64,000 nt of DNA from positions 1,736,001 to 1,800,000 of the forward strand of contig AP026123.1 of assembly GCA_030295235.1 (NCBI GenBank), given 5' to 3'. How positions within the stretch are numbered: the first letter of the stretch is position 1; every line of letters starts with the position of its first letter. Under the pieces are notes generated by a model, which saw only the letters and a program-made list of their open reading frames with translations, was not told where the DNA came from and did no database searches. The position numbers and the translations under genes are program-made. The stretch is from Fistulifera solaris (Eukaryota). Shown here piece by piece: positions 10,302 through 25,630 of the stretch.

Positions 10302-12449
10302 ATGTCGTCCCTACCTTCCGCCGACAGTTTCGTCAGCTTGTCGGGCGGACCACCGGATCCCATTAACTACTTGCGATCGGCACCGGCGTTGCGGAACAGT
10401 ATGCGGTACGATACTGACGATGAAGGACCTGTTGTCACGGATGAAGACCACAGCAAACGAAAACGGGCACTCGAAGAAGATCCACCCGCCCGGGAACGTC
10501 CGACCGATGGTGCCGCGTGGCCGTATCGGGAAACCTTGTCCTTTACGCGTTCGTTGGTCTTTTACGGCGCCGGTTCCATTACTTCCGAAAGTGAAGTCGC
10601 TTGTCAACACATTCAATCGGCACGGTCTCTTCGACAACAGTATTTCGGTGGGACCGGTACTTTGATGAAGAATGCCGCTTATCTGCAAGACAATTCCTTG
10701 CAATTTCAAATGAAAGGAGGCGTCGTGCAATTGCTGTTGCAGGATGAATCTCTCGTGCAAGTGCCTTCCATTGCCGATTTCTGCAAGGACTATGCCAATT
10801 TAGTGACTTGGGTATCGGAAGGTGCCATGCGATCCTTTTGTTTCCAACGCCTCCAAATTTTGTCGACGTCGTACAAAATGCACACGACCTTGAATAGTAC
10901 GATCGAAATGGAAGAACAATCCAATTTGTTGGGGACCGACTTTTATCGGACCATGAAGATTGACAATCACATTCATGCGGCAGCCGCACCGAGTGCGAAA
11001 CAATTTGTGCACTTTGTGCGCACGAAATTACAAACCGAAGGCGACACGGCGGTCAATGCGGATGGTACGACCTTGCGACAAGTCTATCAAGATGCGGGAT
11101 TGGATATGGATCATTTGACCATTGACGCCTTTAATGTATTGGCGGACTACTCGGTATATCAGCGATTTGATAATTTCAATGACAAGATCTCGCCGTTTCG
11201 ATTGGCCGATATGCGTCGGATTTTTCTCAAAACCAACAATCACATGCAAGGACGTTACTTTGCAGAACTCCTCAAAATTGTGTTGCAGCGGCACGAAATG
11301 TCCAAGGGGCATAATTCCGCCTGTGAGCTGCGCTTAAGCATTTATGGAATGGAGCGTCACGAATGGTACGATTTGGCGTGTTGGATGATGCACGATTGGC
11401 CCGCCACGGAAGACACAAAAGGTGGGAATATGGTGTCACCCAACAATCGTTGGTTGGTTCAAATTCCGCGTCTTTGGCGTATCTACAGTCGCAAACCGGT
11501 CCAGGAAAGAGAACCACCACGGTCCTTTCAAGACATGCTCGACAATATATTCATTCCCATGTTTGAAGCCACCTTGCACCCCGATAAGCACCCAGAGATC
11601 GCGCAGTGCTTGCAACACATTGTCGGCTTTGACTCGGTCGATGACGAAGGTGTACTGGAAACCCATTGTGGGCCTGTGGAACCGGAACATTGGACCGATT
11701 CTAAGACTCCCTGTTATCAGTGGCAGTTGTATTACATTTGGGCGAATTTACACGTCCTGAACCGACTCCGCCAGGCGCGAGGATTGAATACCATTGCCTT
11801 TCGTCCTCACGCGGGAGAGACGGGCGATTCGATGCATTTGGCGGCATCGTACATGCTGTGCGATTCGATCAATCACGGCATCTTGTTGGATTCACAAGTC
11901 AGTCTGCAGTATTTGTATTACTTGGATCAAGTTGGTTTGTCGATCAGTCCCTTGTCGAACAACTTTTTGTTTCGTAAAATGGCCGACAATCCCTTTTCGA
12001 AATTCTTTCGTCGTGGATTGAATGTTACCTTGTCAACCGATGATCCACTTTTGTTTCATATGTCGGACGATGCTTTATTGGAAGAGTACTCGGTGGCTCG
12101 GGCAACCTTTGACTTATCCATGACCGACATGATGGAAGTGGCTCGTAACTCGGTATTGCAATCGGGATTTGAGCGCGAATTCAAGAAGCAGTGGCTGGGA
12201 CCTGATTTCGAAAAGGGATTGACGTTCTGTGACGAACACATTACGCACGTGCCATTGATTCGTGCTAAATTCCGCGCCGAGCATTTGGCACTCGAGCACA
12301 TGCTGGTGCATCTCATTGCGGCGGGCAAGGGCAACCGAGTGTTACACGAAATGAAAGTGCAGTTTGGCTTGGCCCGTGATGCTCACAGAGATGTTTTGTT
12401 CGAAAATTTCGACGAGGTCCCTGCGTTTCCCGAACAGAATCAGCTGTAA
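10302..12449 (+). CDS. AMPD: AMP deaminase
   Basis: DNHIHAAA, GFDSVDDE, FRPHAGE, SPLSNN, LSTDDPL, EEYS motifs; first ATG at 10302. Confidence 0.96.
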   Translation: MSSLPSADSFVSLSGGPPDPINYLRSAPALRNSMRYDTDDEGPVVTDEDHSKRKRALEEDPPARERPTDGAAWPYRETLSFTRSLVFYGAGSITSESEVACQHIQSARSLRQQYFGGTGTLMKNAAYLQDNSLQFQMKGGVVQLLLQDESLVQVPSIADFCKDYANLVTWVSEGAMRSFCFQRLQILSTSYKMHTTLNSTIEMEEQSNLLGTDFYRTMKIDNHIHAAAAPSAKQFVHFVRTKLQTEGDTAVNADGTTLRQVYQDAGLDMDHLTIDAFNVLADYSVYQRFDNFNDKISPFRLADMRRIFLKTNNHMQGRYFAELLKIVLQRHEMSKGHNSACELRLSIYGMERHEWYDLACWMMHDWPATEDTKGGNMVSPNNRWLVQIPRLWRIYSRKPVQEREPPRSFQDMLDNIFIPMFEATLHPDKHPEIAQCLQHIVGFDSVDDEGVLETHCGPVEPEHWTDSKTPCYQWQLYYIWANLHVLNRLRQARGLNTIAFRPHAGETGDSMHLAASYMLCDSINHGILLDSQVSLQYLYYLDQVGLSISPLSNNFLFRKMADNPFSKFFRRGLNVTLSTDDPLLFHMSDDALLEEYSVARATFDLSMTDMMEVARNSVLQSGFEREFKKQWLGPDFEKGLTFCDEHITHVPLIRAKFRAEHLALEHMLVHLIAAGKGNRVLHEMKVQFGLARDAHRDVLFENFDEVPAFPEQNQL

Positions 12450-12993: not shown

Positions 12994-14551
12994 ATGAACG
13001 TCAGTCGACTGGTTATTTTAGTGAGAGCTCCAACGCACCGCTCGATGCTCCGTGGCTTCGCATCGGCTGTACCTCGGTATGACGAATCATCCTCGACGAA
13101 ACTAGCCGCCGCCGATAATCCGCTCAAAGTCAACATGAAACCATCCGAAGTAGTCGCTGAATTGAATCGCCACATTGTGGGTCAAGCGGATGCGAAACGC
13201 GCGGTGGCCATTGCCTTACGAAATCGGTGGCGTCGACAACAACTGCCGGACGATTTACGTCCGGAAGTGACGCCGCGCAATGTGTTGCTGGTCGGTCCCA
13301 CCGGCTGTGGAAAGACCGAAGTCGCTCGTCGGATGGCGCAGATTCATGACGCTCCCTTTTTGAAAGTGGAAGCGACGAAATTCACCGAAGTGGGTTATCA
13401 TGGACGCGACGTCGATCAAATAATCCGTGATTTAATGGATGTTTCGATGCAATTGACGAAAAAAGTGTGGACGGAAAAATTACGCGAACAAGCGAAAGTG
13501 CAAGTCGAAGAACGATTGCTGCATCTTCTGACGGGTCCGTCGAGCAAAGACAAATCGGACTCGGCCCGAGCACACGACTCCTTTCGTGACATGCTGCAGC
13601 AGGGAATACTGGACGATCAAGAAATTGAAATTGACGTGCCTTTGCAAAACAACAGTAGTGATATGGGAGGAGGAGATACGTTGAATCCGAACATTGTGGC
13701 CATGTCCGACTTGTGGCAGCGCGTATCCGGTGCGGGAGGTGGGAAGAAACAAGCCACGGAGCGTAAGAAAGTGCCGATATCGCAAGCTAGGGAAATTTTG
13801 CTACAAGTAGAGCTGGATCAGTTGCTCGAGACTGTTGATTTGAAGAAGGAAGCCATTACGGCAGTAGAAGAGTCCGGTATTGTCTTTATTGACGAAATTG
13901 ATAAGATATGTTCGTCTCGTGATTCGTACCGTTCCAAGAGCACGGATGCTTCGGCAGAAGGTGTGCAACGAGACTTGTTACCCTTAATTGAAGGCACTAC
14001 TATCAATACTCGACACGGAAATGTTAAAACGGACTACATTTTGTTCATTGCGGTAAGAGCATGATGGCGTTTCTGATAAAGAAGGACAAAAGGAACGGCT
14101 TATTCATATCTCACCGGTATTCTTTTTTATGTATTAGTCGGGCGCCTTTCACACTGTAAAGCCAAGCGACATGTTACCCGAGCTACAGGGACGATTGCCC
14201 ATTCAGGTTGAATTAAAAGGTTTGACAGAAGAAGATCTGTATCGCATCTTGACAGAACCAGTCGCCAATTTGGTGCGACAGCAAGTCGAATTACTGGCTA
14301 CCGAGGGCGTCACGCTGATATTTGAAGATGCCGCGATTCGGGAAATGGCCCGCATGGCCGCGAAATTGAATCAAACCGTAGAAAACATTGGAGCGCGACG
14401 ATTGCACACGGTCATGGAACGTATCATGGAAGAGCTCAGCTTTCAAGCCGCCGAGTCGGAAGGAGAAACCTTGACAGTCGATGTTGCCTTGGTGCAGGAG
14501 CGCATGTCCTCGGTCACGCAAAAGTTAGACTTGTCCAAATTCATTTTATAA
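12994..14551 (+). CDS. hslU: Mitochondrial HslU/ClpY ATPase (intron 14053-14137)
   Basis: AIALRNRWRR, GPTGCGKTE, KVEATKFTEVGYHG, FIDEIDK, PELQGRLP, ENIGARRL, C-terminal DLSKFIL; basic N-terminal presequence. Confidence 0.96.
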
Positions 14552-15152: not shown

Positions 15153-16681
15153 ATGGCGCTCAATCTGTTAACGTATCAAACAAGTAACAAGTTTGTTGTA
15201 GAACACTTGCGATGGAAGCCTCCGTTCCTCCGGCAGAAACGGATATCGACCGCGGAAGAGCCCACCACTTTGGATGATTTGTGCTGGAGACTCAAACACA
15301 ATGAACTGACGAAACTGAAAGTGGGATTCGGCGAAGAGAATGACGATTATCTCACGAGCACCCGCAATGCCGAGAAACTCGAACGGGCCTTGCGGCACAA
15401 TACCTCATTGCGACACGTCGCGATCGGTTGGCGTCATTCCAGTCGCGACGCCATGTGCATTCTGGTGCGGGCGGTCGCCAAATACACGAGACTGGTGTCC
15501 TTACAACTCATTCTAGACGACTGGTTGCCCGAAAGTCTGCTACGACTGCTCGTGCACAACCAGGCAACTACTTTGGAGACACTCGATATACGTTGTGTTC
15601 AAGTTCTGCGACGCAATCCGCTCGGGAAACTATGTTGTGAGATCACCGTACCTGCCAGTTATTCGGAATCCGTCCGATCTACGAGTACTAGTTCGACTCG
15701 GTCTTCCTCTCAAAGAGGCGCCACCAAAACCATACCGGATCGCTTCTCTTCTACCTGCGACCATTGCATCATCAGCCGCGTATTAATTCAGCTACGAGGA
15801 TCGTACTTTCCGCGTCTAAAAGTCTACAATTGCACGACGTCGGCATGCAAGATTCTCATGCGGTCATGCTGGCCGATTTTCTCCACATTCGCGGAGGACT
15901 GGAAGAACTCGTCGTTCGGAGCAACCGGTCCTTGGGACCGCACGGTGTGTCGATTCTCTCTCAGGCACCCATTACCAAGACGCTTGACTTGAGCTTGTGC
16001 GATATGGACCCAAAGACAGCAGCGGCTTTGGCTCCGGCGATCGCGGCTAGGTCCTTTCCGCTGGGTGAATTATTGGTTTGTGGAAATTACCGCATGGGCA
16101 CGCCGGCGCTGTTGCGATTGTTTCAACCGGCCGTATGTCGTAAATTGAAGGCGATCAACATCAGCTATTGTGATATTAACGATCACCGCGTCAATGAAAT
16201 GCTCAGCGCGATGAGCTCTTTGGACCATTCATCCCGCCTGGAGCGCCTCATTGTCAACGGCAGCCTGGTGGCAAATGAACGCACCGCCACGTCGTGGGCT
16301 CAATTGTTGGAGAAAAACTTGTCGCCGCTTCGTTGTATTCACATGAATGATCCCAAACAGCCCAAAATTTGGAGCCGCCAGCAACTGGAGATACTCGCGG
16401 AAGGTTTGCGAAATAACTACGAGCTGGAAGACTTGAAATTTGATACGTTTTTCCAGTCGTTGGAATTGCGATCCATTTTGTCGAAAATTCAGTTTTACTT
16501 GCGTCTGAATCAAGCGGGACGGAGAATTCTTTTGCTTCGTAAGAACGAAGGTGACGAGAACGTTGATTGGTTTGACGTGATTGCTCGTGGGGGGAATGAT
16601 TTGGATGTCACTTACTGGCTAGTGCGACACAGCGGTGATTTGTTCGAACAGCGCTATCGTGCCGCGAACCTTTTAGATTAA
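15153..16681 (+). CDS. RNI-like leucine-rich repeat protein (frameshift ~15820)
   Basis: LxxNxxL and LxLSxC repeats; C-terminal IQFYLRLNQAGRRIL...YWLVR motif of the type seen in diatom LRR families. Confidence 0.75.
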
Positions 16682-16756
16682 ACATAGAAGCGCGAGCACT
16701 GCATTGCGGATCTCTAAAGTATAATATGAACCTTTATAAGATTTAGTTTCAAAGGG

Positions 16757-18241
16757 TTAAATGTGTCGCGCCGTAGTGTGGTCTAATAATGGCTCCCATA
16801 CCCATAAATTCGTCAAGAACTTTTCGCCCTTTCGCACGGGTCGTGCCTCATGAAGACTCAGATTGTCGAAGTTACCATCCGGTAACACAGAATAAAACAA
16901 TACGGCCTTGCCCCGTTCTGGTTTGACCATCAGCGGCTCGGATGTTTCGCCATTTCTCCATACAGGAAAAGCTGTTTCGCCGCCTTCCATATCATCGTTG
17001 AGATACAGTAGCAGCGTCGCAAATCGACTGGGTTGTAAGTGAACGAGGCCCGGCATGGTGAAGTCGTGATGCGGGTCGTACTTTTCGGCCGGATTGTAAT
17101 GCACGAGTTGCAAGGGTTCCGCGATACTGGTACGGCTCTCGGTGAATTCAGGAACTTCAAACTTGTGCCTATACCGCAATAATGATTCATCAATATGCAG
17201 GACCGCTGCGGCGCGTTGATAGATCGCATCAATGATGATATCGGTCTTGCGACTGACCCACGTATTGGTGGAAGTACGCGTGTTACTCGTGGCTACATCC
17301 GATCCTTCACTGGCTCGCACACCCGATCGCTGCATGTCAGAGGCACCGGCAATGTCCAAGATATGCGCTACCTCGACGTCGGAAAGAAAATTGGGAATTT
17401 CAAAGACCCGAGGAGCACACGACAAGACGGTGAGTGTTAAATTGAGTTCAGGGTATTTATGACGATGGGGTCGGACGTTGGCCACTTCGTCGGGTCGTGG
17501 ACCATACACACTGGTTCCGCGTTGTAAGATCTCTGGATCGGGTTTTTCGACAAAATGGATCTGGTTGGTGGTGATGGAATGTGTTTGACCGATGAAATCC
17601 GCTCGCCATTGGTGGAAACGCGGAGCCAGTTTTTGACCGTACAGTGCCAACCAATCGGTCCCCGTGAACTTCTTGTACGCTTCCGCAAATTGTTTATTCT
17701 GCCATTGTAAGTGATAGAGAACAAGCTGCTGTTCGGTCAAAGCCTTTTGCGCCTTGGCGTAGTCAAAGTCGAACGGATCGTAGTAATAGAGAGAATTGCC
17801 CGATTGAATGGTCCATTTGTGCAAGATGGTAGTCGAATCATTCTCCGGCGTCACCACAAACTTATGAGTCGGATACGTAGCTGTACCCGAAGACGAAAAT
17901 GGCGGTACCGATGAAATATACACCAACCCACTGCTACCTCCTCCATCCCAATGAACCCTCACCGGATCGGGAGAGAGATTGATGAACTTTCCAAAGAAAC
18001 CGTTGTGTTTCATGGTTTGTACCTTCCGTGTACCGTCCGTCTCATTGTAATACGTCGATACATCCGGTGGAACGTACGCATAAAAGGTGCTATCAAAGAC
18101 TTCCATGGGTCTCAAATTGGGTTCCCAGCCACATTCGGGAGCCCCCGTCCATAGATGACAATTGCCAATTTCTGGTTGCTCCTGGGCTTGACTCGATAGT
18201 ATCAGAGAAGCCCAGCACAGTAGAGACCATATTGATAACAT
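16757..18241 (-). CDS. Secretory prolyl 4-hydroxylase (2OG-Fe(II)) with N-terminal VHL-like module
   Basis: Signal peptide MLSIWSLLCWASLILSSQA; PRVFEIPNFLS, RTS, EPLQLVHY, YDPHHD, RFATLLLYLND, GGETAF, LHEARPV, KFLTNLW. Confidence 0.9.
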   Translation of the reverse strand: MLSIWSLLCWASLILSSQAQEQPEIGNCHLWTGAPECGWEPNLRPMEVFDSTFYAYVPPDVSTYYNETDGTRKVQTMKHNGFFGKFINLSPDPVRVHWDGGGSSGLVYISSVPPFSSSGTATYPTHKFVVTPENDSTTILHKWTIQSGNSLYYYDPFDFDYAKAQKALTEQQLVLYHLQWQNKQFAEAYKKFTGTDWLALYGQKLAPRFHQWRADFIGQTHSITTNQIHFVEKPDPEILQRGTSVYGPRPDEVANVRPHRHKYPELNLTLTVLSCAPRVFEIPNFLSDVEVAHILDIAGASDMQRSGVRASEGSDVATSNTRTSTNTWVSRKTDIIIDAIYQRAAAVLHIDESLLRYRHKFEVPEFTESRTSIAEPLQLVHYNPAEKYDPHHDFTMPGLVHLQPSRFATLLLYLNDDMEGGETAFPVWRNGETSEPLMVKPERGKAVLFYSVLPDGNFDNLSLHEARPVRKGEKFLTNLWVWEPLLDHTTARHI

Positions 18242-18880
18242 TGTTTGTTTTAGAAGCTCATACGATAGGAAAAAATGTTGTTGATCTATCTTTGTTACAT
18301 GGAAAAGAACGCCAAAACGAGGCACGGTCATTTCATGCATCATGCATGACCGACACGGGTTCGGGCTTTAGTCGTCACATTCATTCCCGGATCAACGCGA
18401 TTCAATGGTTTCCCTTGTCTAAATAATTTAGGGAGGGTACCGTACTTTATTTTCTCCTTGGACGAAGGGCGAAGCTACCCCAGCAAAAAAGGATTAGCAG
18501 TGTTTCAAGCACCGCGTATTACAATGCTTTATAATAGGCTCTTCTTTAGTCCATAAAACCCTTATTTGAAAGGAAAATCAAGGTTTGTGATGATCTCCTT
18601 GGGGCATCTTTTTCTCGCCAAGCTATTCTACCTAAGAGCATGCCTAAAAAACTACTCGATGTTTAGATTGCAGCTGTGTGCTTGATGTATCGAAGGAACA
18701 GTGCCGCACTTTATTTTGCTAGGTCGCCCTAAGTCTCGGTACCTTCTGACAAGCCCGTGCGTCGAAGTCAAAGCAACAATCATTCATGCGCACTCCATTT
18801 TCTCAAAACAAAATATATCCGTATGCCTACACTTTTCAAAAATTAGAAAATAAAGAGTTTGTTTCCTTTATTGTGTATTT

Positions 18881-19330
18881 TTATGCCGAGCTTTTGCGTC
18901 CCTTCTTGACCGGCACGGGCTTAGTGATACCCTTGGCACGACGGTTGGCTTGGTATACTGCAGTGTATTTCGCCAATACAGCTCCCTTCAGATCCTGTCG
19001 GTAAAAGTTATCAATGCCTTGTCCGACAATCACCTTCTCCGAACGACGGAAATCCTTGTTGACGTTGATTTTGGCCACAGCAACCTTACTGCCGGACTTA
19101 CCGGCGGTCTTCTTGATCAACTGTGCACGATTTTCACCCGAAAACACCACATCCAAAGCCTTGCTGTTAGCGATGGCCGAGTACTTGAGCTGATTCAAGG
19201 ACTTGCAGTTACCGGGCTCGACCGAGAATTGCACACTGCCCGAGCGCTTGGTTTGGCCGTTGCGCTTCTTGAGGAAGCAGTTATTGCGGCGGACGATTTC
19301 CCACGTCAGTTGGTCTGGAATTGCTACCAT
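18881..19330 (-). CDS. RPL28: 60S ribosomal protein L28 (eL28)
   Basis: LTWEIVRRNNCFL, FSVEPGN, KYSAIAN, FYRQDL motifs. Confidence 0.93.
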   Translation of the reverse strand: MVAIPDQLTWEIVRRNNCFLKKRNGQTKRSGSVQFSVEPGNCKSLNQLKYSAIANSKALDVVFSGENRAQLIKKTAGKSGSKVAVAKINVNKDFRRSEKVIVGQGIDNFYRQDLKGAVLAKYTAVYQANRRAKGITKPVPVKKGRKSSA

Positions 19331-20967: not shown

Positions 20968-22491
20968 ATGTCAAATATATTCTCTTCTATAGTGAAAAAG
21001 GTACAAACTACCGTCGAAAGCAAACAAGAACAGATTCGAATCGCCGATGAAGCGAAAAAAGTAGGGAAAATTTATGACTCGTCTGAGAAAGCCTGGGTTT
21101 TCTATTTCTTAGATGCCGAGTTTGATACCTTACAAGACGAATGGAACAAGAAGCAAAAGAACAACGGCAGCAGTGTGACTAGTTCGGACGAAAAGCAAGT
21201 CAAAGACCGTGAATATTACGACTTGCTGGACGTCAGCACGAATGCCGACGAAGTCACGATTCGAAAAGCCTACTTCAAAACGGCACGGAAATGCCATCCG
21301 GACAAAAATCCAGACGACCCCGAAGCGCATGCTAAATTTCAAGCACTCGGAGAGGCGTATCAGGTCTTGAGCAATCCACAATTGCGTGCGGCCTACGATC
21401 GGGATGGAAAGTCCACAGAAACGTCCACGGCCGCGGAGAACATGCCCAATCCGCAAGATTTTTTCAATGTCATGTTTGGAAGTACTTTAGTTGAGCCTTA
21501 CATAGGAGAGCTGTGGATTGCATCCATGACCTCGGATGCAATGATGAATCCGGATGCGGGTATCGACTTTGAGGAATTGGAGAAGAATGCGGACCTCACC
21601 GAGGAAGAGAAAGAAGAAATTATGCGACAAAAAGCCAAGGAGCTGCGTGAAAATAATGAATTGCAGCAAAAGCTGCGGCAAGTCAAATGTGCCCAAGCGC
21701 TGCGACAGCGTATTTCGTCTTTTGATGCCAAAGCAGATTGGCGTATTTTTGCTGATGAAGCCAGGAAGGAGGCGCAAAACATTGCGCAAGGTGCTTACGG
21801 CTCGATGTATTTGATCACCATAGGTTTTGCATGGCAAATAGCCGCGGAAGAGTTTCTGGGTCAATACGACAAAAATGCTTGGTTTTCTGGACAAGTCGCG
21901 AGTGCGCGAAAGAATTTTAGTGGAATTGGTAGTAACTTCCAGTTGATTGGTGCCGGCTTAAAAGCCGCGACGGCTGGATCAAAAGCACTTCATCAGGCAG
22001 AACAAATACAAAAAGGCCAGGAAGACGATGCAAATGCGCAGTTAATGATGGCAGAAACTATTGATGGTTCGTTACCCGCTTTTTTGAATTTTGCGTGGGT
22101 TATCAACAAACGAGACATTAAAAGTACAATTGCCAAATCCTGTTACAAGCTTTTCAACGATGCTGGTGTACCGCTCGAAAGTCGAATCGAACGAGCGAAA
22201 GCGGTTCGAATACTGGGTCGTGAGTTTCAAGCTGTGGGTCGCAAGCATCAAAAGACGGAGCAGCACTCATCGGACGATATCAAAGCCCGAGTTGCTGTTG
22301 CAACCATGACGACAATGGCCAAGGCACAAGGCCAGGAAGTCACTGAAGAGGATCAGCTCAATATGATGAAGCAAGCAAAGGAGGAACTGAGTAGCATGCA
22401 TGGTAGTAGTGCACATGGTAGTGAGACGTCTGCTGCAGTGGACGGCGACTCTAGTGCGCCCTTGAATACGGACGAGACAGGCAAGTTGTAG
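20968..22491 (+). CDS. DnaJ protein with DnaJ-X domain (Caj1/Djp1-like)
   Basis: J domain EYYDLL...HPDKNP...LGEAYQVLS; FGS-x4-YIGEL and DIKSTI motifs. Confidence 0.9.
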   Translation: MSNIFSSIVKKVQTTVESKQEQIRIADEAKKVGKIYDSSEKAWVFYFLDAEFDTLQDEWNKKQKNNGSSVTSSDEKQVKDREYYDLLDVSTNADEVTIRKAYFKTARKCHPDKNPDDPEAHAKFQALGEAYQVLSNPQLRAAYDRDGKSTETSTAAENMPNPQDFFNVMFGSTLVEPYIGELWIASMTSDAMMNPDAGIDFEELEKNADLTEEEKEEIMRQKAKELRENNELQQKLRQVKCAQALRQRISSFDAKADWRIFADEARKEAQNIAQGAYGSMYLITIGFAWQIAAEEFLGQYDKNAWFSGQVASARKNFSGIGSNFQLIGAGLKAATAGSKALHQAEQIQKGQEDDANAQLMMAETIDGSLPAFLNFAWVINKRDIKSTIAKSCYKLFNDAGVPLESRIERAKAVRILGREFQAVGRKHQKTEQHSSDDIKARVAVATMTTMAKAQGQEVTEEDQLNMMKQAKEELSSMHGSSAHGSETSAAVDGDSSAPLNTDETGKL

Positions 22492-24041: not shown

Positions 24042-25630
24042 TCATTCCGTTGACTTGCGCTTTTTGTCTTTCTTCTTTTTCTTCTCTTCCTTCTTAGCCT
24101 TCTTGGCGGACTTTCCTTCGTCTTCGTCATCGTCATCATCTGAAGACTTTCTCTTCTTCGTGCTTGGCGTTTCGGCATCTTGAGCATCATCCGCTTCTAC
24201 TGATTTTCGCTTCTTGTCTTTCTTTTTCTTTTTGGCGCTTTCCTCGGTTGCTGAAGTACCGTGCAACTCACGCGCTACTTCTTGCATGACATCCAAGTTC
24301 TTCCTGGGTGCCTGTCCTGTCTCGTAAAATTTCAAGCGTTCCTCCACTTGTTCTCGCAATTTTTCGCCGTAAAGGCGGTTCGGGACGTCGGAGAAAGAGT
24401 CGATTCGTGTAGCAATGGAACATTTGTTAGCGAGATATCGACTGATGCGTCCTTTATTCTTCGCGTCGGCTCTTCCGATAAAAGTACTGTGATAAATCAG
24501 CCCGTACTTGGGGGTGTTTCCTTTTGTTTTCAGAGCCCGGAATAAGGCCTTTTCTGCGCCCAAAATCTGCACCGTACTAGCTGGAGATTTAGCAAGATTG
24601 GTCAAAGATCCGGCCTGCGAAAAGCACGTATGAGATGACAAAAGCAGAAGCAACAAGACGAATTGCTTGTTGTGAGCCTTACCTTGCTAATCAGACGGGC
24701 GGCTACGGTATCACCAATGAGAGCGGAAAGATTTGGCGCCACAATGTTCATCTTTGTTTGCAGATATTCAGACAATTGCTTTCTATACTCCGCCAGATGG
24801 ATCATGCGTTGCGTGAAGTTCACAATATTCAACATATCGGTATCGCTGCACGCCATTCCCATACTCGTCTTAGCTGCCTGAACTATGGCCTGCACGGTCT
24901 CCTCATCTTGTACAATATTCTGTAATTCCGCCAACTTGCTGTCGCCTGTCAACAATGTCTGTTTATCTTGAACACAAGCAGCTACGCGTGCGAACTGAAT
25001 ATTGTCCGACACAACGTCTTTTAGCTCCGGGAAGTGCCATGAATACCATTCCCGCACCCGCATGGCAGCCGAGTTGACATCCTTGTCCAACTGATCCAAC
25101 AAAGCAATCGACTGAATAATCATGTTGTCGGATCGGGCCGGGTTGAACTTGACCTTAGAACGCGAGTACGCGTGACCAAGTCCCAACTGAGCCTTTGTGG
25201 AGGAGCCCTGCAAGCCTTTGACCATTTGTTCGAGATGCAGTCTCGAGCCGCGGCAAATCTCTCGGATCGTTTCATCGGATCGGCATGTGAAGTTCGTTCC
25301 AGAAGAGATGGCGGTGGCCAAGCCGGGATCGATGACACCCAGAGCGACAGATGCCGTTTTACTGGACTTTTTCGGCTTCGGCATGTTAATTTGCAGGAAT
25401 TCTTTAAGGGTGTCACTCATCGCATGTTCGGATACAGCGTTGGCATTCTCCAAAGCTTCTGAAGCAGAAGCAAAGGGATGGAAGGCTTTCAATTTAACGG
25501 CGCGACCAAATCGATTGATATCAGTTAATGTATCCTGATTTCCTGTAATTTCTTCCATAGCCACAACCTCAAAGAGGGCATAACCGGCCGCCGATTCATA
25601 CAGGGTGAATAAGGATGTTGCGTCAGCCAT
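24042..25630 (-). CDS. NOP56: Nucleolar protein 56 (intron 24615-24682)
   Basis: [73 protein letters not shown] tail. Confidence 0.96.

Follow-up and report, generated by a model that had tools for sequence, protein, structure and literature searches.

A probable VHL beta-like domain joined to a secretory prolyl 4-hydroxylase in the diatom Fistulifera solaris

The window analyzed here is a stretch of 64,000 nucleotides (nt) from the diatom Fistulifera solaris (assembly GCA_030295235.1, contig AP026123.1, positions 1,736,001 to 1,800,000 of the forward strand), and all coordinates below are those of the window. One of its genes, a coding sequence (CDS) on the minus strand, encodes a protein of 494 amino acids (aa) in which a signal-peptide-like N-terminus is followed by a beta-sandwich domain, a helical linker and a prolyl 4-hydroxylase (P4H) catalytic domain. 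We report that the sandwich is very probably a divergent homologue of the beta domain of pVHL, and that the core of the hydroxyproline (Hyp) pocket of pVHL appears to be retained in it. The original prediction, made from the DNA letters alone, proposed this fusion and suggested that the enzyme might both make and bind Hyp. The peptide on which it was founded, placed between the signal peptide and the P4H at about 17845-17990, corresponds to residues 86-130, with residues 86-128 at 17858-17986 on the minus strand. The features of the locus are as follows.

16757..18241, minus strand: the whole CDS, intronless, 494 aa plus a stop codon (16757-16759), from the open reading frame (ORF) and its translation
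18182..18241, minus strand: signal-peptide-like N-terminus, aa 1-20, with a hydrophobic core and small residues before a putative cleavage site
18020..18181, minus strand: conserved N-terminal segment, aa 21-74, with Cys28, Cys37 and a beta-hairpin, kept in diatom homologues
17732..18019, minus strand: VHL-beta-like sandwich domain, aa 75-170, from AlphaFold models, Foldseek, VIA-align and hhalign
17858..17986, minus strand: putative pocket-forming block within this domain, aa 86-128, with F86, N88, S90, W98, Y108/I109, T122, Y123, H126 and F128
17429..17731, minus strand: conserved helical linker and pre-catalytic region, aa 171-271, with many near-invariant columns and no Pfam match
16796..17428, minus strand: prolyl 4-hydroxylase catalytic domain, aa 272-482, from phmmer and PF13640
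17063..17071, minus strand: metal-binding His391-x-Asp393, aligned with the H-x-D of 2jig, codons verified
16820..16852, minus strand: distal His464 and 2-oxoglutarate-binding Lys474, aligned to conserved His and Lys residues in 2jig, codons verified
16713..16756, minus strand: short 3' untranslated stretch to a possible poly(A) site, weakly hinted at by one contig end

The protein as a whole is best read as a soluble P4H of the secretory pathway, one of a kind widespread among diatoms. By its sequence, the C-terminal half is a complete Fe(II)/2-oxoglutarate P4H of the algal and plant type. At an E-value threshold of 10, PF13640 (aa 377-482, 54.9 bits, with a cut-off of 27) was the only Pfam family found in the whole protein, and nothing else was matched, including in aa 1-376. 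All nine matches of the protein in the PDB are prolyl 4-hydroxylases, and the best in a phmmer search was the Chlamydomonas enzyme (2jig, 3gze and 2jij; E 7.9e-26 over aa 272-482). The four catalytic residues (H/D/H/K) are all present in 73 of the 159 aligned family rows, most of the remainder being truncated. Substitutions occur in a few full rows, namely R-D-H-K in three and H-D-H-T, R-D-H-L and H-D-Y-V in one each. The N-terminal domain is present in these relatives, which may be inactive paralogues with only a binding module left.

The sandwich domain was modeled twice with AlphaFold. The first model covers aa 21-270, was built on 57 sequences and has a mean predicted local distance difference test score (pLDDT) of 85.9, with blocks of 94-98 across model residues 61-170. 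The second covers the domain alone (aa 75-170), was built on 52 diverse segments and reaches a pLDDT of 94.5 and a predicted template modeling score (pTM) of 0.83. A VHL fold, as expected from the original prediction, was recovered in both cases, with pVHL as the best match by Foldseek and by VIA-align. Every match listed by Foldseek against the PDB was pVHL. For the first model the best E value was 3.2e-4, with 15 matches at or below 0.001 and template modeling (TM) scores of 0.22-0.27 by query and 0.34-0.46 by target, values kept low by a query that extends beyond the domain; for the second the best E value was 1.3e-4, with 42 matches at or below 0.001 and TM scores by query of 0.49-0.62. 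VIA-align, searched against 48,161 representative chains, placed pVHL chains first and second with the first model (7khh_C, Z 9.9, and 4wqo_A, Z 9.4) and returned pVHL at Z 9.6 and 9.2 with the second. The first model superposes on 7khh_C with a root-mean-square deviation (rmsd) of 2.8 Å over 79 residues (model 59-144 on pVHL 69-156), and the second on pVHL likewise with 2.8 Å over 79 residues (model 5-86 on pVHL 69-156). Across both models, the pVHL superpositions range from 2.3 to 2.8 Å over 78-79 residues, the query side being predicted models, and identity to pVHL within the structural alignment is 14%.

The second-best fold match, over aa 79-164 of the model, is the N-terminal luminal sandwich of the lysosomal acetyltransferase HGSNAT (8jkv and 8tu9, Z 7.2-8.4). 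It scored Z 8.4 and 7.4 with the first model, ahead of assorted sandwiches at 6.7 or below, and 8.0 and 7.2 with the second, ahead of others at 6.5 or below. Two considerations weaken the argument from structure: the Z margin of pVHL over the HGSNAT luminal domain is only about 1.5, and AlphaFold may have leaned on pVHL structures from its training. We therefore do not rest the case on the fold alone.

Several sequence searches also weigh against a relationship to VHL. Neither the window protein nor the isolated domain matched PF01847, even at E 10, and the window domain lies under the curated cut-off of this Pfam family (21 bits). HMMER profiles of the family, searched against PDB sequences at E 10, did not find pVHL. 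The diatom full-length profile recovered P4Hs alone, and so did the most VHL-like family member searched by itself. The domain profile matched nanobodies (E 0.023-1.5) and one ribosomal protein, without pVHL, and we read the nanobody matches as chance. Word-indexed searches for bridging sequences returned five short fragments with the domain profile, none of them with PF01847, and with aa 75-185 of the most VHL-like member they returned only that member itself. Because profile-to-sequence HMMER fails, the link to VHL needs a profile-profile comparison by way of bacterial members.

Three lines of sequence evidence point the other way. Among distant full-length members, PF01847 was matched below its cut-off by 7 of 147 (7 of 76 in one batch and 0 of 71 in the other), the best at E 9.7e-4 and 19.5 bits. 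All seven matches share one register, in which the conserved Phe of a K-F-x-N-x-S-P motif falls on PF01847 profile position 14. When domain segments were searched, 11 of 52 matched PF01847 (best E 1.3e-4), which was the sole Pfam family matched repeatedly, 12 other families being found once each. For the profile-profile comparison we used 30 PF01847 domains of Planctomycetota, all above the Pfam cut-off. With these, hhalign aligned the diatom-type domain profile at a probability of 96.9% and E 1.5e-10 over 66 columns, whereas reversed and 20 column-shuffled templates gave at most 1.2%, with E values of at least 0.045. The bacterial profile in turn reached human pVHL at E 1.4e-14 in a gapless alignment, and all 24 sequences that it found were pVHL. 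The VHL profile search suggested along with the original prediction is thus empty for the window protein when run through Pfam, and the match to PF01847 domains appears when profile is compared with profile.

The fold searches, the recurrence of PF01847 and the hhalign result with its clean controls agree, and we take homology as very likely. The fusion of a VHL-beta-like module to a secretory P4H is upheld by these results and by the conservation of pocket residues among orthologues described below. It is highly improbable, in our estimation, that the resemblance is convergent and the domain a generic secretory beta-sandwich unrelated to VHL, for example a module binding carbohydrate or a wall polymer. 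Such a reading could draw on the many sandwich and carbohydrate-binding module folds at Z 5-6.7, on the low identity to pVHL and on the failure of HMMER alone to connect the family with pVHL. It is opposed by the distance between the hhalign match and its 21 controls, by the single recurrent Pfam family with its seven full-length matches in one register, by the first rank of pVHL in four fold searches, and by a motif spacing that is the same as that of pVHL except for one indel.

According to excerpts of PMC9528729, the Hyp site of pVHL consists of Trp88, Tyr98, His110, Ser111, His115 and Trp117. In the same excerpts, the Hyp hydroxyl is hydrogen-bonded by Ser111 and His115, the hydroxyl of Tyr98 bonds the Hyp carbonyl, the backbone of His110 bonds the Hyp NH, and Phe76 and Tyr112 line the flanks of the site (PMC9528729). 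The human pVHL stretch obtained by HMMER fits all 15 residue and number pairs in these excerpts at a constant offset, which bears out the pVHL stretch and pocket residues given in the original prediction. Equivalences were established by chaining the hhalign alignment of the window domain to the bacterial profile with the HMMER alignment of that profile to human pVHL, and conservation was counted in the 171 family members, of 200 aligned, that have at least 80 aligned residues.

F86, opposite pVHL Phe76: F in 163 of 171
N88, opposite Asn78: N in 169 of 171
S90, opposite Ser80: S in 151 of 171
W98, opposite Trp88: W in 152 of 171, Y in 11
A121, opposite His110 (backbone contact): A in 143 of 171
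T122, opposite Ser111: T in 129 and S in 32, together 161 of 171
Y123, opposite Tyr112: F in 72 of 171, Y in 62
T125, opposite Gly114: G in 101 of 171
H126, opposite His115: H in 136 of 171; Q, N or E in 28
F128, opposite Trp117: F in 164 of 171

Four of the five Hyp pocket residues are aligned in this way (W98, T122, H126 and F128), and the counterpart of Tyr98 lies one residue off, in a loop. Conservation within the domain is highest along the pocket strand, G119-F128. Across all six reading frames of the window (127,996 translated residues), the spacing F-11-W-9-Y-13/14-[ST][YF]-2-H-1-[FW] is seen a single time, at this site, against about 6e-4 occurrences expected from the composition of the protein. 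The pocket had been mapped by eye to W, Y, T, H and F; the profile alignment retains four of these, which are conserved among family members as W, S/T, H and F/W, and leaves the counterpart of the tyrosine ambiguous.

This tyrosine is the first of several points against a VHL-type pocket. A one-residue indel before it leads hhalign to set I109, not Y108, opposite Tyr98, and position 108 is Y in just 58 of the 171 members (L in 48, F in 23, H in 11). The sequences allow just as well an alternative gap that puts Y108 opposite Tyr98, which reproduces the W-to-Y distance of 10 residues found in pVHL and in the bacterial domains. In addition, H126 is replaced in the 28 members listed above, the exact pVHL spacing is seen in only 9 of 176 members (125 of 176 with a relaxed motif), and the peripheral peptide contacts of pVHL (Pro86, Phe91, Pro99, Arg107 and Ile109) are not kept. 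Loss of these HIF-peptide contacts is what we would expect if the bound peptides differ. Judging from the alignments, the core of the 4-hydroxyproline pocket of pVHL appears to be kept in the diatom-type domain.

A word-indexed search with aa 21-270 found 59 relatives at E values of 0.001 or below, with 36-96% identity, and the named sources among them are the diatoms Phaeodactylum tricornutum and Epithemia. An exhaustive search of 1.84 billion representatives at 50% identity gave 282 proteins at or below 0.001 and 171 at or below 1e-10, ranging from 81 to 957 aa. The architecture therefore extends beyond a single diatom, and the taxa that could be named are diatoms. We then ran an iterated hidden Markov model of the domain (threshold E <1e-5) over the 206 proteins in hand and detected it in 198, of which 147 also include the P4H part. 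The other 51 are read as fragments because the sequence ends no more than 142 aa after the domain. No stand-alone form and no partner other than P4H was seen among these 198 proteins. Among the proteins found, the domain is exclusively associated with P4H, and the pairing is obligate.

Automatic labels in the ESM Atlas, which we treat as leads, include at least three diatom P4H clusters (493, 535 and 505 aa) with the same N-terminal sandwich by structure, and the 505-aa cluster has a ShK domain in 68% of its members. They also include a Haptophyta cluster with PF01847 on 12% of its members and Basidiomycota clusters named VHL beta domain proteins; the VHL-named clusters have feature scores of 0.77-0.85, under the bar of 0.9, and are leads only.

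A full-text literature search, with subscription journals, InterPro, SUPERFAMILY and Gene3D outside its scope, found no paper on a VHL-like domain in a P4H, and an annotation held only in databases may exist. Nor did full-text searching, again with subscription journals outside its scope, find a paper on VHL domains in diatoms or Planctomycetes. What is new here is that a known type of enzyme carries an unrecognized accessory domain of a famous family, one that Pfam does not annotate.

The bacterial VHL domains come from Planctomycetota genomes that were chosen with a 16S probe. PF01847 was found above its curated cut-off in 30 of the 301 genomes searched, at 31-52 bits. The VHL domain is N-terminal to a DPP-IV N-terminal region in 9 of the 12 ORFs examined, and an S9 peptidase domain is visible within the locus in seven of these nine; in the remaining ORFs it follows leucine-rich repeats (LRRs) in one and stands alone in two. 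The same VHL/DPP-IV combinations are listed in the ESM Atlas, again as automatic labels to be taken as leads. The pocket of the 30 bacterial domains has W in 30, Y in 30, T in 28 and S in 2, H in 27, and W in 30, from the Trp88 to the Trp117 position. With T in 28 of 30, Thr can be regarded as the norm at the Ser111 position outside animals.

Comparison across these groups also bears on the possibility that the diatom domain is a VHL beta homologue that has lost ligand binding and acts structurally, in folding, interdomain packing, oligomerization or retention in the endoplasmic reticulum (ER), its conserved residues then stabilizing the fold or forming an interface with the catalytic domain. 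The entire N-terminal region is highly conserved, linker helices included, the domain is never seen without P4H, and the ESM Atlas model of the whole protein (pTM 0.82) suggests that the two halves are fixed relative to each other. N88, S90 and P91 are conserved in the family too, and the pVHL counterparts of these residues are structural. Against this, the domain is predicted to fold confidently on its own (pLDDT 94.5), and it is exactly the residues in contact with ligand that diatoms, bacteria and animals have in common. Moreover, the bacterial and animal domains have different partners, which makes a shared interface unlikely. We consider a structural role without ligand binding distinctly unlikely.

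The protein collection and the ESM Atlas both contain this 494-aa sequence without a single difference. Contigs from four runs of one study, guessed to be RNA, span the CDS without joints, and on this basis we infer that it has no intron. The frame stays open for 34 further codons upstream (18242-18343, minus strand), where there are more in-frame ATGs; the database gene models and signal-peptide logic favor the ATG at 18241 as the start. A contig gap at 18377-18787 in three of the four runs, one of which has a depth of 1.24 in 18240-18376, provides no evidence on the start codon. Read from the sequence, the Kyte-Doolittle mean is 1.66 for aa 2-17 versus -0.59 for aa 21-60, and no recognizable retention signal was seen at the C-terminus of the 494-aa protein. 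In the segment of aa 21-74, the first model has strands at model residues 23-28 and 31-36 with block pLDDT values of 87-90, and the linker helices lie at model residues 141-147 and 150-173, which correspond to aa 161-167 and 170-193.

Downstream, a contig from one run begins at 16713, 44 nt past the stop codon, and its loose end carries 14 T when read on the plus strand. Such an end weakly hints at the poly(A) tail of a minus-strand transcript, coming as it does from a single contig of a run whose RNA nature is guessed. A further contig, at 16451-17635, runs over the spacer and the 3' half of the gene; it differs from the window at 49 letters and has five single-base gaps at 16671-16736, all of which fall outside the CDS. 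It resembles a divergent allele of this locus or the version found in another strain. The neighboring genes encode an AMP deaminase (10302-12449, plus strand), a Clp/Hsp100-like AAA ATPase fragment (12994-14064, plus strand), ribosomal protein L28e (18881-19330, minus strand; PF01778, E 3e-22), a DnaJ/DnaJ-X protein (20968-22491, plus strand), a Nop56/58-like protein (24602-25630, minus strand) and an LRR protein. Contigs of two runs begin at 18851 and 18843 with loose ends of 21-22 T, resembling poly(A) of a minus-strand L28e transcript. The genomic context is one of ordinary eukaryotic housekeeping genes and gives no functional clue.

Turning to function, it is quite possible, although we place it somewhat short of even, that the diatom VHL-like domain is a Hyp reader that tethers its own P4H. 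The enzyme would enter the ER and work in the lumen of the ER or Golgi, where the catalytic domain could hydroxylate wall or adhesive proteins that are secreted and rich in proline. Hyp already made in the same chain would then be bound by the N-terminal domain, with the 4-hydroxyl hydrogen-bonded by Thr122 and His126 and with W98, Y123 and F128 packing on the Hyp ring. An enzyme tethered in this manner might modify neighboring prolines in clusters, that is, processively. Suitable substrates are expected, since hydroxylated proline abounds in diatom walls and adhesive trails: an excerpt of PMC3478156 (citing Nakajima and Volcani 1969) describes 3,4-dihydroxyproline as a major component of the wall, and in an excerpt of bioRxiv 10.1101/2023.03.06.531300 dihydroxyproline is given as 17% of the amino acids in Craspedostauros adhesive material.

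The homology and fold evidence would serve equally well for a substrate-binding module, one that holds unmodified proline-rich (polyproline-II) stretches and recruits substrate instead of reading product, in function much like the peptide-substrate-binding domain of animal collagen P4H. To hold a proline ring, the aromatic side chains of W98, Y123 and F128 could suffice, and the counterpart of Tyr98, which binds the Hyp carbonyl in pVHL according to the excerpts of PMC9528729, is not conserved. Furthermore, the DPP-IV/S9 peptidases that follow the domain in 9 of the 12 Planctomycetota ORFs act on ordinary prolines. The main difficulty for such a module is the Ser/Thr and His pair, which reads the hydroxyl in pVHL (excerpts of PMC9528729). 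A binder of plain proline needs no buried hydroxyl and imidazole pair, yet both residues are kept in animal, bacterial (30 and 27 of 30) and diatom-type domains (161 and 136 of 171), and because of this Hyp is favored over plain Pro as the ligand. We regard binding of unmodified substrate as unlikely.

The Hyp-reading role was originally predicted to lie outside the HIF/ubiquitin context, and this agrees with the signal peptide, with P4H as the sole partner and with the lack of a VHL_C or BC-box part, the latter being defined by the Elongin C-binding box consensus. Since the signal peptide would route the protein into the secretory pathway, Elongin-Cullin machinery is not expected in its compartment.

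The VHL fold has repeatedly been joined to proline-directed enzymes, which fits an ancestral role in recognizing proline-derived residues. A broader scenario, unlikely as a whole, traces the VHL beta domain to an ancient Hyp/Pro reader used when Pro-rich extracellular proteins were processed. It would have been paired with DPP-IV in Planctomycetota and with P4H in diatoms and related organisms, and its recruitment to the oxygen-sensing ligase of animals would have come later. The diatom writer-reader would then spread hydroxylation along wall and adhesive proteins and, by holding 4-hydroxyproline near the active site, may be the source of 3,4-dihydroxyproline. We know of no enzyme to which the 3,4-dihydroxyproline of diatom walls has been assigned.

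The Hyp pocket of pVHL is the reader in animal oxygen sensing and the handle of most proteolysis-targeting chimera (PROTAC) drugs, and its origin is unclear. A VHL-type pocket core and a Hyp-making enzyme in one algal secretory chain would constitute a directly testable writer-reader for protein hydroxylation. The combination suggests that recognition of Hyp or Pro by the VHL fold predates HIF signaling, and it offers candidates for the enzymes behind the heavily hydroxylated prolines, dihydroxyproline included, of diatom frustule and adhesive proteins. If Hyp reading is true, the domain would offer a natural, small, secreted Hyp-binding scaffold; without binding, what is left is an accessory domain of algal P4Hs that had gone unannotated.

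Among known systems, the closest to the N-terminal half is the beta domain of human pVHL (PDB 1lm8, 4ajy, 7khh and 4wqo). The two have the same beta-sandwich (Z 9.2-9.9), a common F-x-N-x-S-P start, and a pocket block of the form W...[ST]-[YF]-x-G/T-H-x-[FW] that is equally spaced except for one indel. The diatom protein differs in having a signal peptide and a fused P4H and in not reaching the Pfam VHL cut-off. Within its domain Ser111 is replaced by Thr and Trp117 by Phe, the counterpart of Tyr98 is uncertain, and the peripheral HIF contacts are different. There is also no VHL_C match in aa 1-376 (Pfam, E 10), and no alpha domain or Elongin-binding part. We considered and rejected the idea that the protein is a pVHL orthologue: VHL_C is lacking, the alignment stops at pVHL 155-156, and a helical linker then leads into the P4H.

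The Planctomycetota proteins in which PF01847 precedes DPP-IV/S9 domains resemble the diatom protein in having a VHL beta domain N-terminal to a proline-directed enzyme and in the Thr at the Ser111 position (28 of 30). They are bacterial, they exceed the Pfam cut-off, and their partner is a post-proline peptidase (LRRs in one) and not a hydroxylase.

The catalytic domain is like those of Chlamydomonas reinhardtii P4H-1 (2jig, 2jij and 3gze) and plant P4Hs, with the H-x-D...H...K residues aligned. An excerpt of PMC7773692 describes the Chlamydomonas P4H as hydroxylating Pro-rich peptides and as required for wall assembly. In contrast to the diatom protein, the solved P4H-1 enzyme is the catalytic domain alone (224-233 residues) and does not have the N-terminal VHL-like domain.

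A similar logic, by analogy, is found in animal collagen P4H, in which a peptide-binding domain likewise stands ahead of the P4H catalytic domain. The alpha subunit of this ER-lumen enzyme has a helical, TPR-like peptide-substrate-binding domain in front, which prefers unhydroxylated Pro-rich peptides, and the enzyme is a tetramer with protein disulfide isomerase. Its N-terminal Pfam families were not found in the diatom protein (Pfam, E 10), whose N-terminal region is modeled as a beta-sandwich plus two helices, and its catalytic domain is a weaker match to the diatom protein (7zsc, E 1.6e-11).

A more distant parallel may be drawn with the writer-readers of chromatin, for example methyltransferases whose chromodomain recognizes the mark that they make. 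The folds, chemistry and compartment are unrelated, and on the diatom side the parallel is drawn from the domain combination. The likeness would be that in both systems one chain makes a mark and binds it, spreading along the substrate.

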